From assembly GCA_963812015.1 (NCBI GenBank), contig CAWETI010000002.1, positions 512,001 through 576,000 on the forward strand: a stretch of 64,000 bases of DNA. Reading direction: 5' to 3'. How positions within the stretch are numbered: the stretch's first letter is position 1; each line of letters starts with the position of its first letter. This stretch comes from an uncultured delta proteobacterium (GTDB lineage: Bacteria > Desulfobacterota > Desulfobaccia > Desulfobaccales > 0-14-0-80-60-11). This document shows positions 21,938 to 27,109 of this stretch, piece after piece. The position numbers and the translations under genes were made by a program. The notes below the pieces were generated by a model. That model saw only the letters and a program-made list of their open reading frames with translations. It was not told the origin of the DNA and did no database searches.

Positions 21938-22405
21938 ATGGCAAGACTTACTCCCGGGGAGGCAGCCCCGGAGTTTCAGTTGCTGGATCAGCACGGTAAG
22001 ACGGTAAGCCTGGCGGATTGGCGCGGCGGCAAGCTGCTGATCTACTTCTACCCCCGGGCCGATACCCCGGGGTGCACCCGGCAGGCGTGCAGCATCAGGG
22101 ACGCCCGGAAGGACTTACAAGACCTGGGCCTGGCGGTGGTGGGGATCAGCCCCGATCAGCCGGCCAAACAGCAGAAGTTCAATGCCAAGCACCATCTTTC
22201 CTTCCCCCTCCTGGCGGACCCGGACCACCGGGTGGCGGAGGCCTACGGCGCCTGGGGCGAAAAGACCCTGTATGGGAAAAAAACCCTGGGGATCATCCGC
22301 TCGTCGGTTTGAATCGACGCGGCGGGTAAGGTTATCCAGGCCTGGTACGGGGTCAAGCCGGAAGACACGGTCCCCAAGGCCGAAAAGGCGTTGCGCGGCG
22401 GCTGA
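21938..22405 (+). pseudogene. bcp: Peroxiredoxin Bcp/PrxQ interrupted by in-frame TGA at 22310-22312
   Basis: YFYPRADTPGCTRQAC; the frame continues after TGA as IDAAGKVIQAWYGVKPEDTVPKA, the normal Bcp C-terminus. Confidence 0.8.
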
Positions 22406-23812: not shown

Positions 23813-24097
23813 TCAGTCACCGTTGATGCGATTGCGCAGCACGCCGGAAGTTTTAAAGACCACTACCTTGCGGGCCCGGAGGATAAGGTTCTCCTTGGTT
23901 TGGGGGTTGCGTCCCCGGCGGGCGTTTTTTTGCCTGACCGAGAATTTTCCAAAGCCGCTGATGAGCAGGTCGTCTCCCTGGGCCAGGGACTCCTTCATAA
24001 TATCCAGGACCCGTTCCACCGTCGAACGTGATTCTTGCTTGCTCAAACCCACCTGCGTCTGTAAGCGGCTGATCAATTTTTCCTTGGTGAGGGCCAT
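23813..24097 (-). CDS. ihfA: Integration host factor alpha subunit
   Basis: MALTK, ISGFGKF, GRNPQT, RKVVVFK. Confidence 0.88.
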   Translation of the reverse strand: MALTKEKLISRLQTQVGLSKQESRSTVERVLDIMKESLAQGDDLLISGFGKFSVRQKNARRGRNPQTKENLILRARKVVVFKTSGVLRNRINGD

Positions 24098-24185: not shown

Positions 24186-25073
24186 CTAGACGGGGGAGGC
24201 GGCGCGCTTGATTTTGACCGGTTTACGCGGTGGCCGGCGGATGCCAAAATCCAGGGCGCTGAAGTGGCAGGCGTCCACGCAGCGCAGGCACATGATGCAC
24301 TCCCGGCTGTCGAATTCCTGGTTGGGCACGACCCCGGTGGGACACTTGCGGGCGCAGGCCCCGCATTCCACGCAGTTGCCTTCGATGAACTCTAACTGCA
24401 CCAGGCTTATCCGGCTGAAGAGGCTGTAAAAGGCGCCCAGGGGGCAGATGGTCCGGCAAAAAAACCGGCTGATGAGCACGGCCGCGACGAGGATGAGGAT
24501 GAGGATGGCGAGCTTGTTCCAGAAGAAAAAGGTCACGGTGGCCCACAAGCCGGGTTTCAGCAAGAGGAGGGGCATGGCCCCCTCCAGGGTGCCGGCGGGA
24601 CAGATGAGCTTGCAGAACCAGGGGTGCCCCAACCCGGAGCTATCCACAAAAAAGACGGGCATGGCCACCACCAGCACCCCCAGCACCGCGTACTTCACCC
24701 AGCGCAGGGGTTTCCACAAGAAAAACTTCCGGGTGGGGATCTTGTGAAGCAGATCCTGGATGAACCCGAAAGGGCAGATCCAGCCGCAGGTCAACCGACC
24801 CACCACGGTGCCGATAAAGCCTACATAACCCAAGACGATGGCGCCAGTCAGGGGGAATCCCCCCGTATTGAACCGCAGGCTGGCCATGAAATTCTGGAAG
24901 GCCCCCACCGGACAGGATAGCAGAGCCCCGGGGCAGGAATAGCAGTTAAGGCCGGGATGACACACCGCCTTCAACGGCCCCTGATAGATAACCGAGCCGC
25001 CGAAGGGGAACAGCAGGTAAGCGTTAGTCCCAAAGGCGACCAGGGTCTGGACCAACCACCTGAGGCGGTTCAT
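24186..25073 (-). CDS. Membrane-bound 4Fe-4S binding protein (NapH/MauN/YccM-like)
   Basis: CYSCP, CGWICP, CKLICP, CRTICP and two C-terminal CxxCxxCxxxC motifs; several TM helices; ATG overlaps the upstream peptide stop (TGATG). Confidence 0.9.
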   Translation of the reverse strand: MNRLRWLVQTLVAFGTNAYLLFPFGGSVIYQGPLKAVCHPGLNCYSCPGALLSCPVGAFQNFMASLRFNTGGFPLTGAIVLGYVGFIGTVVGRLTCGWICPFGFIQDLLHKIPTRKFFLWKPLRWVKYAVLGVLVVAMPVFFVDSSGLGHPWFCKLICPAGTLEGAMPLLLLKPGLWATVTFFFWNKLAILILILVAAVLISRFFCRTICPLGAFYSLFSRISLVQLEFIEGNCVECGACARKCPTGVVPNQEFDSRECIMCLRCVDACHFSALDFGIRRPPRKPVKIKRAASPV

Positions 25074-25204
25074 CAACCGACTCCGATGCAAGACAGGCAG
25101 ATGGTAGTGCCCAGGTTGAGTAGATAGGTCAGGTCACCGGTGTTAACCCCCAGGATGAATAAGGCGGTAAAGAGAATGATAAGCCAAAAGGATTTCTTCG
25201 GCAT
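25073..25204 (-). CDS. 43-aa CxxC membrane microprotein (CD1871A-like family), Cys form
   Basis: RBS GGAGG; MPKKSFWLIILFTALFILGVNTGDLTYLLNLGTTICLSCIGVG; stop overlaps the 4Fe-4S gene start. Confidence 0.88.
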   Translation of the reverse strand: MPKKSFWLIILFTALFILGVNTGDLTYLLNLGTTICLSCIGVG

Positions 25205-25323
25205 AAACAACCTCCCAGTGGAAATGGCCCCTGATAAATCGCCGCGCCGCCGAAGGGAAACAGGACTTTGGCGTTGGCACCCAACGCCATCAGGGGTTGG
25301 ATGAGTGACCAGAGCCTGGCCAT
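25129..25323 (-). pseudogene. Truncated duplicate of the 4Fe-4S gene 5' end; frame runs on into the Cys-peptide gene
   Basis: MARLWSLIQPLMALGANAKVLFPFGGAAIYQGP vs MNRLRWLVQTLVAFGTNAYLLFPFGGSVIYQGP, 21/33 identical by manual count. Similarity ends at about 25225. Confidence 0.8.
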
Positions 25324-25337
25324 CACCCCACCCCGAT
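25289..25337 (-). promoter_or_regulatory. Putative bacterial SECIS hairpin
   Basis: mRNA AUCGGGGUGGGGUGAUGGCCAG-GCU-CUGGUCACUCAUCCAACCCCUGAU folds as a long stem. It starts 10 nt after the UGA and has a G-led apical loop about 32 nt downstream. Confidence 0.7.
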
Positions 25338-25454
25338 ACAGGATAGTCAGATAGTGTTTCCCAGATTCATCAGGTATCCTAATTCACCACTGTTGACCCC
25401 GATAACAAATAAGATGGTGAAGATGATGATGAGCCACAAGGCCTTTTTGGGCAT
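25323..25454 (-). CDS. 43-aa UxxC selenoprotein microprotein (Sec paralog of 25073-25204)
   Basis: RBS GGAGG; MPKKALWLIIIFTILFVIGVNSGELGYLMNLGNTI-U-LSCIGVG. TGA at 25347-25349 aligns with the first Cys of the paralog. Confidence 0.85.
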
Positions 25455-25584
25455 GTTCCTACCTCCCGCCGGTTCAGGTTCACCATGGCAGGGTGATTGA
25501 TCGATCCCCTCATCTAGAGCTAATCACTATTATATCCATGGCCAAGCTTCCGGGGAAAAAATTTTTCCGGGTGAAGACAATTTC

Positions 25585-25614
25585 TTGACAAATCCATATA
25601 TATTAATATATATG
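25585..25614 (+). promoter_or_regulatory. Sigma-70 promoter overlapped by a 20-bp perfect palindrome (probable ArsR operator)
   Basis: TTGACA at 25585-25590; CATATATATTAATATATATG at 25595-25614 covers the -10 region. Confidence 0.7.
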
Positions 25615-25620
25615 AATATT

Positions 25621-25920
25621 ATGGAAGATGAATATTTGAAGGAATGGTTGGAGAGAGCGGCCCGATGCCTCAAGGTGCTGGCCCACCCCACCCGCCTGTT
25701 GATCATCCATCTCCTGGGCGATGGCGAGCTATCGGTGCAGGAGCTGGAAAAGGCGGTGGGGGTCAGCCAATCCAGCGTGTCCCAGCACCTGGGCCTGCTC
25801 AGGGACAAGGAGATCCTGGAATCCCGGCGGGTGGCCCAGCAGGTGTTCTACCGGCTGCGGGATCCCCGAGTGCTGCAACTGACGGCCCTTACCCGGGAGC
25901 TGTTCTGCAAGGTAGGCTGA
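25621..25920 (+). CDS. ArsR/SmtB-family regulator, BigR/SqrR-like Cys pair
   Basis: ARCLKVLAHPTRL, SQSSVSQHL, C-terminal LFC; possibly leaderless. Confidence 0.88.
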   Translation: MEDEYLKEWLERAARCLKVLAHPTRLLIIHLLGDGELSVQELEKAVGVSQSSVSQHLGLLRDKEILESRRVAQQVFYRLRDPRVLQLTALTRELFCKVG

Positions 25921-26014
25921 GGCGAGGGCCGCGGCGCCGGGCAGGTTACACGGGGAACACTTTCCTGAAATTCCGCTGAGTGAATTTCAGGATAATCTTA
26001 AGGAGAAAACCATT

Positions 26015-26464
26015 ATGTCTGCCGCACCGCAAAAAGATAAGGCCGCGTTTATCTGCTCGAGAGACACGTTGGACGGCGCCTATCCGCCGCTTATTCTGGG
26101 CATCAATGCCGCCCGGGCCGGCATGGAATCCAAGGTGTTTTTCACCTTTATGGGCATCAACCTGGCCTGCAAAGGTGGCATTGAAAAGGCCAGGTTTATT
26201 CCGCCCGGAGTCATGGGGGCGGTGCCGGGGATGTCCGCAATTGCCACCGGCATGATGAAGAAGAAGATCGACAAGGCCCACATCCCCTCCCTGCCGGAAC
26301 TGATGGAGATGGCTCAACTGGAAGGCGTGGAGTTGATCGTCTGCAAGATGACCATCGATATGATGGAATTAAATGAAGACGACCTGGTGGAGGGTTCCGT
26401 GGTGTGGACGGCCGAGGAGTTTATCAAATTCGCTAAAGACTGCAAGATCTGCTTGTTTATCTAA
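26015..26464 (+). CDS. DsrE2/DrsH-like sulfur-carrier protein
   Basis: FFTFMGIN, IPSLPELMEMA, IVCKMTIDMM, C-terminal LFI. Confidence 0.88.
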   Translation: MSAAPQKDKAAFICSRDTLDGAYPPLILGINAARAGMESKVFFTFMGINLACKGGIEKARFIPPGVMGAVPGMSAIATGMMKKKIDKAHIPSLPELMEMAQLEGVELIVCKMTIDMMELNEDDLVEGSVVWTAEEFIKFAKDCKICLFI

Positions 26465-26587
26465 GAGAACGCTCTGAGGTCAGGGCACCCCGGAGGGGAG
26501 ATTGAGGGGAGGGCGGGAAACATGGTAAAAAATTGCTCGGCCCGCCCCACGATGCCTGCTGTAGAGTTCTCAAGTCAGGAGGCGCGC

Positions 26588-27109
26588 ATGGGCAAGGCGG
26601 CGTTAATCGTGGCGGACATGCTCAATGATTTTCTGGACCCCCAGGGAGCCCTGTATGTGGGGCCCCAGGCCCGGGAGATCATCCCCTTTGTGGCGCAGAA
26701 GATCGCCGAGTTCCGGGCGCAGGAAGGGGTGGTGATCTTTGTCTGCGACGCCCACGCCCCCGATGACCGGGAATTCAGATACTTCCCGGCCCACGCGGTC
26801 AAGGGGAGCTGGGGGGGCGAAATCATCCCCGAGCTGACTCCTGGACCCGGCGACCACCGGGTGGAAAAGACCCGGTACAGCGCCTTTGCTCACACCAACC
26901 TGGAGGCTATTCTCCAACGGGAGCGGGTGGAGGCGGTGCACGTGGTGGGGGTGATGACCTCCATCTGCGTCATGGAGACGGTCAAGGAACTCTTCGACCG
27001 GGATCTACCGGCCCTGGTGTACCAACAAGGGGTGGCGGACTCGGACCCCGAGGCCCACGCCTTTGCCCTGAAACAGATGCCGCGGGTCTTTGGCGCGAAG
27101 GTGGTGTAG
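26588..27109 (+). CDS. Isochorismatase-family cysteine hydrolase (nicotinamidase-like)
   Basis: DMLNDF, DAH, PAHA, KTRYSAF, TSICV. Confidence 0.9.
   Translation: MGKAALIVADMLNDFLDPQGALYVGPQAREIIPFVAQKIAEFRAQEGVVIFVCDAHAPDDREFRYFPAHAVKGSWGGEIIPELTPGPGDHRVEKTRYSAFAHTNLEAILQRERVEAVHVVGVMTSICVMETVKELFDRDLPALVYQQGVADSDPEAHAFALKQMPRVFGAKVV

Follow-up and report, generated by a model that had tools for sequence, protein, structure and literature searches.

Expression of the selenocysteine machinery of E. coli is reportedly controlled from the leader of selAB, where, as described by Thanbichler and Boeck in 2002, a SECIS-like hairpin is bound by SelB and represses the genes for that machinery. The elements that direct selenocysteine (Sec) insertion at UGA in bacteria have been modeled as hairpins with a loop of 3-9 nt, a stem of 4-16 bp, a stability of -7.5 kcal/mol or lower and a UGA-to-loop spacing of 16-37 nt, the loop carrying a G in one of its first two positions that is mostly followed by G or U (PMC13188914), and elsewhere as stems of 6-8 bp with the loop G about 20 nt from the UGA (PMC4605307). 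A canonical SECIS accompanies 87.4% of catalogued bacterial selenoprotein genes, leaving about one in eight without (PMC13326102). The element lies past the stop codon, at the normal short spacing, in the C-terminal selenoprotein SaoC (10.1101/2022.07.06.499078) and in an engineered 3'-UTR version for thioredoxin reductase (PMC10778597). Pairs of Sec and Cys paralogs, and remnant SECIS elements after a Sec-to-Cys change, have also been described (PMC1794560).

The locus analyzed here lies in a 64,000-nt stretch of DNA from an uncultured delta proteobacterium, the whole of which is referred to as the window. On the minus strand, a gene for a Sec-form peptide and a truncated 4Fe-4S gene (the stub) precede a Cys-form copy of the peptide gene and an intact 4Fe-4S gene. 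The features are as follows.

25323..25454, minus strand: Sec-form small membrane peptide of 43 aa, CD1871A-like, with a UxxC-IGVG end (translated ORF and homologs)
25347..25349, minus strand: in-frame UGA, codon 36, in the UxxC motif and aligned with an invariant Cys (peptide alignment)
25289..25337, minus strand: HP1, a long imperfect hairpin enclosing the stop/start overlap, loop at 25315-25313; proposed bridge (folding and conservation)
25270..25288, minus strand: HP2, an 8-bp hairpin immediately 3' of HP1, loop G-GUG-C; proposed SelB-binding site (folding and conservation)
25129..25323, minus strand: stub frame of 64 codons, homologous to the 4Fe-4S gene over 25323-25225 only; frame unconserved
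25364..25374, minus strand: 5' arm of P0, a tentative outer helix, in peptide codons 28-31 (pairing across tandem loci)
25230..25240, minus strand: tentative 3' arm of P0, in stub codons 29-33; its end coincides with the end of stub homology
25211..25216, minus strand: ribosome-binding site (RBS) of the Cys copy (present in 20/20 tandem loci)
25073..25204, minus strand: Cys-form peptide of 43 aa with CxxC; its stop overlaps the 4Fe-4S start (TGATG)
24186..25073, minus strand: NapH/MauN-like membrane 4Fe-4S protein of 295 aa, Fer4_5 plus C-terminal 2x4Fe-4S
25612..25920, plus strand: divergent ArsR/SmtB-family regulator, context gene (same neighbor in several relatives)
26015..26464, plus strand: DsrE2-like sulfur carrier, context gene

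The stop of the Sec peptide overlaps the stub ATG as TGATG at 25325-25321 (minus strand), HP1 begins 9 nt 3' of the UGA, and the Cys-form peptide follows 250 nt downstream of the Sec-form one. A preliminary description had proposed a tandem duplication in which the stub is homologous over 33 codons and has an ATG inside a stem, overlapping the Sec stop, and all of these elements were found; stub codons 1-33 show 64% identity to the start of the 4Fe-4S gene. The stub frame in the window also runs, as had been described, across the Cys-copy RBS and closes 76 nt inside the Cys gene. Both the SECIS-like stem at 25289-25337 and a second hairpin of 9 bp fold as proposed, the latter spanning 25289-25269, with an unconserved ninth pair that uses the last base of HP1. 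The segment 25349-25262 folds at -44.6 kcal/mol (z -4.17), and none of 200 shuffled sequences was equally stable. An Rfam scan of the region returned two chance-level matches only, and a covariance model of the stubs, scanned against the host genome, matched only the two copies of this locus.

The peptide is present in 36 of 41 relatives; within the order, 75 of 83 genomes have it. In a genome collection, at least 119 stretches matched a pattern for the Sec-form C-terminus, and a lineage-specific pattern matched 39 in metagenomes. Among the matches listed, 77 window-type loci were picked by peptide sequence alone, 50 of them distinct over 85 nt; one was dropped as too short, leaving 49, of which 20 are tandem, 28 single-copy and 1 frameshifted. 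Named records of these loci, among the matches listed, belong to Desulfobaccales, Syntrophobacterales or a delta proteobacterium; the loci are kin, so that the counts given for them overstate their independence. For other lineages, 97 pattern matches among those listed were reduced by 11 that are not peptide-like and 2 duplicates to a set of 84 from many phyla. Sec and Cys forms were compared order-wide in 78 loci from genomes of the order (26 Sec, 52 Cys).

The Sec-form peptide is predicted to be a selenoprotein: its UGA aligns with a conserved Cys, and homology continues past the UGA. C36, C39, G41 and G43 are invariant across 48 Cys forms, and the host genome encodes selA, selB, selD and tRNA-Sec. 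It might be objected that the UGA is a plain stop, that the first unit is a pseudogene or that the repeat is an assembly artifact, as translation past the UGA is predicted from sequence and contigs, among them RNA-run contigs that cover parts of the region, are uninformative on expression. However, the UGA stands at the invariant Cys in 84 distinct other-lineage loci among the matches listed, 78 of which have a canonical SECIS; the codons after the UGA are conserved; the Sec machinery is in the genome; and the Sec copies are more similar to one another than the Cys copies are (mean identity 85% versus 68% in the 19 tandem loci with a whole Sec peptide). An artifact at the duplication junction, a concern of the preliminary description itself, can be set aside, since this junction is crossed by contigs from two other studies (25158-25623 with 14 differences and 25104-25444 with 4 differences), and the layout recurs in 20 distinct loci. 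We give this objection, in any of its three forms, almost no credence.

Against the CD1871A model NF040920, the two peptides score 21.1 and 17.8 bits, under the curated cut-off of 32, and a relative in the same order scores 32.0. Judging from the matches to NF040920, the features of that family, a small hydrophobic protein with a CxxC-IG[VI]G end encoded 5' of a 4Fe-4S gene, are all found here, and the order of peptide and 4Fe-4S gene is retained across phyla. Pfam gave no match for peptide or stub, a protein search returned 25 close Cys-form relatives annotated as hypothetical or left nameless, and no solved structure was found for the membrane portion of the 4Fe-4S protein. A predicted complex of peptide and 4Fe-4S protein scored 0.37, versus 0.00 for the best of 3 controls, on a scale where 116 of 157 solved complexes attain the complex mark, against 2 of 215 mismatches, scores as low as 0.37 being those of 18 of the 157 and of both mismatches; its runs agree in at least 94% of contacts, with partner pLDDT of at least 67. 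The model weakly suggests that the peptide may pair with the 4Fe-4S protein.

An isochorismatase-family gene also lies upstream, forming an ArsR/DsrE2/isochorismatase block at 25612-27109 (plus strand), and an IHF/HU gene (23813-24097, minus strand) lies downstream of the operon; all four genes recur beside the operon in close relatives. The ArsR and DsrE2 neighbors suggest that the operon may serve a membrane thiol/sulfur redox relay. Farther away, a peroxiredoxin/BCP-like gene (21938-22405, plus strand) has an in-frame TGA at 22310-22312. Its reading as Sec was rejected: the TGA falls at a non-Cys position, where three relatives have Phe-Leu, and the frames of 14 relatives are open, which points to a strain-specific lesion or an assembly error.

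The two hairpins differ in how they have been conserved. Across the 20 stubs, 3-5% of cells depart from the consensus in HP2, 46% in the HP1 loop and 32% in the 19 columns after HP2. Stem pairing, which the preliminary description had asked relatives to share, is retained in the tandem loci, with 99.4% of HP2 cells paired (wobble changes included) and, for HP1, 99% of cells in the inner and 90% in the outer stem. One HP2 pair is changed on both sides in 4 sequences, and the covariation score was reached by 0 of 500 shuffles; this score comes from that one two-sided pair, possibly from one or two events, in a structure derived from the same sequences. HP2 did not originate with the stub. The proposal that no second hairpin exists in the full-length gene holds for the window only, as all 28 single-copy Sec loci have HP2 within the intact 4Fe-4S gene, a position at which synonymous codon choice yields an HP2-type stem 1-2% of the time. 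At one such start (L016, genome G003), an in-frame duplication of about 23 codons has left HP2 in the diverged first copy, and the second copy is normal. No terminator match, U run or promoter-like site was found at HP2, and its function as a terminator or internal promoter was ruled out.

HP2 also follows the UGA. Order-wide, a distal hairpin with a G[G/U] loop occurs in 26/26 Sec versus 2/52 Cys loci (the exceptions being G006 and G467). In genus g16, which has both forms and in which selA was detected in 14 of 15 genomes, HP2 is found in 9/9 Sec versus 0/7 Cys loci; HP1 persists in the Cys loci there, with a median of -18.3 versus -21.0 kcal/mol in the Sec loci. One Cys locus (G444) has an HP1 sequence identical to that of its Sec sisters and differs at two HP2 bases. 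On a tree of the 4Fe-4S gene built from the region beyond the hairpins (52 rows; G010 was left out as too short), UGA and HP2 each change 5 times in the single-copy loci. Well-supported branches hold 4 independent Sec/Cys pairs, of which 3 are concordant and 0 opposite (p 0.25).

Measured against the published rules, HP2 has the stem, energy and loop of a SECIS: 7-8 bp, a loop of 3-5 nt, -12.2 kcal/mol in the window (-9.3 in the weakest of the 49 loci), and a loop that fits the rule for the G and its neighbor in 49/49 loci. Its loop lies 58-66 nt from the UGA (66 in the window), outside the range of 16-37 nt, and we therefore class HP2 as an element that may work like a SECIS rather than as a canonical one. 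HP1 has the canonical spacing, with its loop 28-31 nt from the UGA in the 49 loci (30-31 in the window), and a variable loop of 34 types, with a G at the conserved position in 31/49. HP1 may be an ordinary SECIS, if a long one, to which SelB binds, with HP2 as an accessory (a pause, stabilizer or enhancer) needed only where there is a UGA; the stub would still be a structure-carrying relic. HP1 itself passes the canonical SECIS test in the window and in 11/20 tandem loci, which counts against HP2 as the SECIS, as do the two Cys loci that retain HP2; in the single-copy window-type loci, the same test is passed in 2/28, and it is HP2 rather than HP1 that tracks Sec. The G[G/U] motif in the HP1 loop shows the same split (11/20 tandem versus 2/28 single-copy loci), and the HP1 loop of tandem loci, freed from coding, may be drifting toward, or may already be, a second SelB site. 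We regard HP1 as the sole SelB site as doubtful, though with a real chance of being right.

A binding site for some factor other than SelB, such as an RNase processing site, an mRNA protection element or a target of another RNA-binding protein, would offer another account of HP2, in which the hairpin, once ribosomes have halted at the UGA, shields or splits the transcript. Any such anti-decay device would likewise track the UGA, and loci of another, Deferrimicrobium-like family have a canonical SECIS plus a hairpin at HP2's place with a different loop, so that hairpins may arise at this place for some other reason. Yet this account leaves 26/28 single-copy Sec loci without a canonical SECIS, and HP2 is conserved in loop sequence as well as stem, in a form that fits the SECIS rule, with no terminator-like U run. 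We consider it improbable.

Elsewhere, the canonical element is common. Among the matches listed, the other-lineage loci show a canonical hairpin in 78/84, mostly at 18 nt and across the stop codon, with a stop/start overlap in 0/84 and a distal hairpin in 3/84. In the host genome, the best SECIS loop lies 22-24 nt from the UGA in 9 of 12 candidate selenoprotein genes examined. A further candidate readthrough UGA, on contig G000:C3 near 239560 (minus strand), has coding signal on both sides and is followed by LAEC; it has no canonical hairpin and a long stem after the UGA, and may be a non-canonical case or a plain stop.

A third helix, P0, tentatively encloses the UGA and both hairpins. In the tandem loci, 91.8% of its cells are paired and one pair shows a two-sided change; the median duplex is -14 kcal/mol in the 20 tandem loci, and P0 is weak or absent in the g16 Sec loci. 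An enclosing helix suggested by RNAalifold, which paired the UGA region with the end of the stub, was rejected, as it showed no two-sided change and had a better partner upstream of the UGA, namely P0.

The preliminary description had favored a selenium switch, in which Sec insertion lets ribosomes reinitiate on the stub and so block access to the Cys copy, restricting production of the Cys backup to selenium-free conditions. The geometry exists in the window and in 4 other loci of the 20, and the stub ATG and the CxxC of the Cys copy are each retained in 17/20. Conservation of the overlap among relatives had been set beforehand as the test of this model, and an out-of-frame overlap of RBS and ATG occurs in only 5/20 tandem loci; the other 15 lack it, and stub ends scatter. 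The stub frame ends 33-84 nt short of the Cys gene in 10/20, continues in frame into the Cys peptide as a fusion in 1/20 (L216) and, in a close relative (L207, 1/20), has its stop overlapping the Cys ATG, a geometry that would couple Cys translation to the stub instead of occluding it. Within the genus of the window, the out-of-frame overlap is found here only among 7 tandem genomes. A net indel is present in 14/20 stubs, and the end at +76 in 3 of the 4 indel-free stubs still open marks it as the undecayed default of the stub. The stub ATG sits in a stem and has been lost in 3/20 loci with the stem retained by compensation.

The RBS and ATG of the Cys copy and its overlap with the 4Fe-4S start are retained in 20/20 tandem loci, in agreement with the earlier remark that the intact 4Fe-4S gene looks coupled to the Cys copy, which is awkward for a switch as every one of these loci has its 4Fe-4S gene dependent on the Cys ORF. 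The Cys peptide keeps CxxC in 17 loci, has lost a Cys in 3 and its tail in 1. An RNA-structure switch acting on the Cys RBS was also ruled out: with a ribosome modeled at the UGA, the stop or the stub, there was no consistent change in RBS access, median access was 0.07-0.14 in all four modeled ribosome positions, and trimming of the downstream gene lowered access by more than 0.2 in 4/20 loci and raised it in 3/20. With scattered stub ends and no consistent RBS effect, the occlusion model is unsupported, and we judge the switch to be very improbable; a side effect of reinitiation specific to the window may occur.

The simpler reading offered at the time, that the stub survives because the SECIS needs it, comes closer. 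Very probably, the stub is what remains of a duplicated 4Fe-4S gene, a 5' end in decay that has been retained as RNA and not as a reading frame; that reading had assigned the signal to HP1, whereas it is HP2 that tracks Sec. In the explanation that we prefer, the stub would carry the recoding signal of the upstream selenopeptide. HP1, starting about 9 nt after the UGA, would loop out about 49 nt, and HP2, stacked behind it, would reach the mRNA entrance of the ribosome and be bound by SelB. With 9 nt between the UGA and HP1 and no gap between the two hairpins, a collapsed HP1 would place the HP2 loop at about 17 nt plus the width of a helix, close to the spacing of about 20 nt in PMC4605307. 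That HP1 brings HP2 about as near to the decoding site as a SECIS normally lies, and that SelB binds there, seems somewhat likelier than the contrary.

The same arrangement may explain why this lineage departs from the others. A peptide stop that overlaps the next start leaves no room for the short across-stop hairpin of other phyla. In single-copy loci, the signal and codons 1-20 of the 4Fe-4S protein would have to occupy the same sequence, and the 4Fe-4S gene would be coupled to a peptide that is completed only upon Sec insertion. The tandem form would split these roles, with the RNA left to the stub and the Cys ORF running into a 4Fe-4S gene free of the constraint; at an HP2 position, this gene encodes Phe instead of Leu in 16/20 loci. 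The Cys copy has its own RBS and stop/start overlap, and we infer from this that the 4Fe-4S gene is translated without selenium; the Cys copy would then serve, if nothing more, as a coupling leader through which the 4Fe-4S gene escapes its need for selenium, and its product would be a passive, more loosely constrained backup. Taken as a whole, with a structure-bearing relic stub, HP1 as bridge, HP2 as SelB site and a selenium-free, Cys-led 4Fe-4S gene, this explanation has in our estimate a little better than an even chance.

Two origins are conceivable for the tandem layout: a duplication followed by reversion, or a Sec unit inserted upstream of a Cys operon. Single-copy loci of genus g1 nest weakly among the tandem ones on the 4Fe-4S gene tree. 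Locus L232 appears to be a recombinant of the two layouts: its Cys peptide is of the tandem type, and the hairpins on either side of it, in the stub and at the start of the 4Fe-4S gene, are of the single-copy type.

In conclusion, the evidence tips slightly toward a natural bacterial SECIS that acts from 58-66 nt. SelB would bind a hairpin inside the next gene, with a spacer helix looping out the stop/start overlap; the arrangement would stem from a stop/start coupling that excludes the canonical hairpin, the coupled 4Fe-4S gene would be selenium-dependent in single-copy operons, and the tandem form would be an escape. If this is true, a spacer helix plus a distal hairpin would define a testable class for some of the genes without a canonical SECIS, SECIS searches would be run differently, and the SelB site of engineered genes could be put outside the coding region. 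A ready-made mutant pair is available in the sister loci with a common HP1 and with differences at the UGA and in HP2. The peptide itself would be a widespread small selenoprotein, and it is absent from the current 119-family table of PMC13188914, a comparison that covered the table proper. A literature search, mostly outside subscription journals, gave no match for CD1871A, and the literature searched, partly as titles and the starts of abstracts, offered no precedent for a bridged or distal bacterial SECIS with SelB.

Among known systems, the CD1871A family NF040920 with its NapH/MauN-like neighbor is the same kind of small hydrophobic CxxC-IG[VI]G peptide encoded 5' of a Fer4_5 membrane protein; the window peptides differ in scoring below its cut-off. 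The comparison was made by the family's name line, and occasional Sec members may therefore already be familiar to its curators. Control of selAB in E. coli likewise links selenium to translation through a SECIS-like hairpin away from a decoded UGA; the element there is in a leader, whereas here the hairpin follows a conserved UGA and has no conserved regulated target. The Sec/Cys pairs of PMC1794560 resemble G006, a Cys locus with both hairpins kept, and G104 and G341, each with a Sec and a separate Cys copy; they differ from the present case, in which both forms stand in tandem in one operon with a stub between. In those two distant genomes (L070/L071 in G104, L072/L073 in G341), a Sec copy with a canonical SECIS precedes the 4Fe-4S gene and the Cys copy lies elsewhere. 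In comparison to the bacterial SECIS model of PMC13188914, HP2 is alike in its stem and in its loop of G then G or U, and in being present with UGA and lost with Cys, but it lies beyond the stop, inside the next gene, and behind a longer hairpin. The SECIS elements of SaoC and thioredoxin reductase are likewise past the stop, as is the short canonical hairpin that other phyla have for this peptide family; their spacing is short, whereas HP2 lies about three times farther from its UGA and would need the intervening helix.
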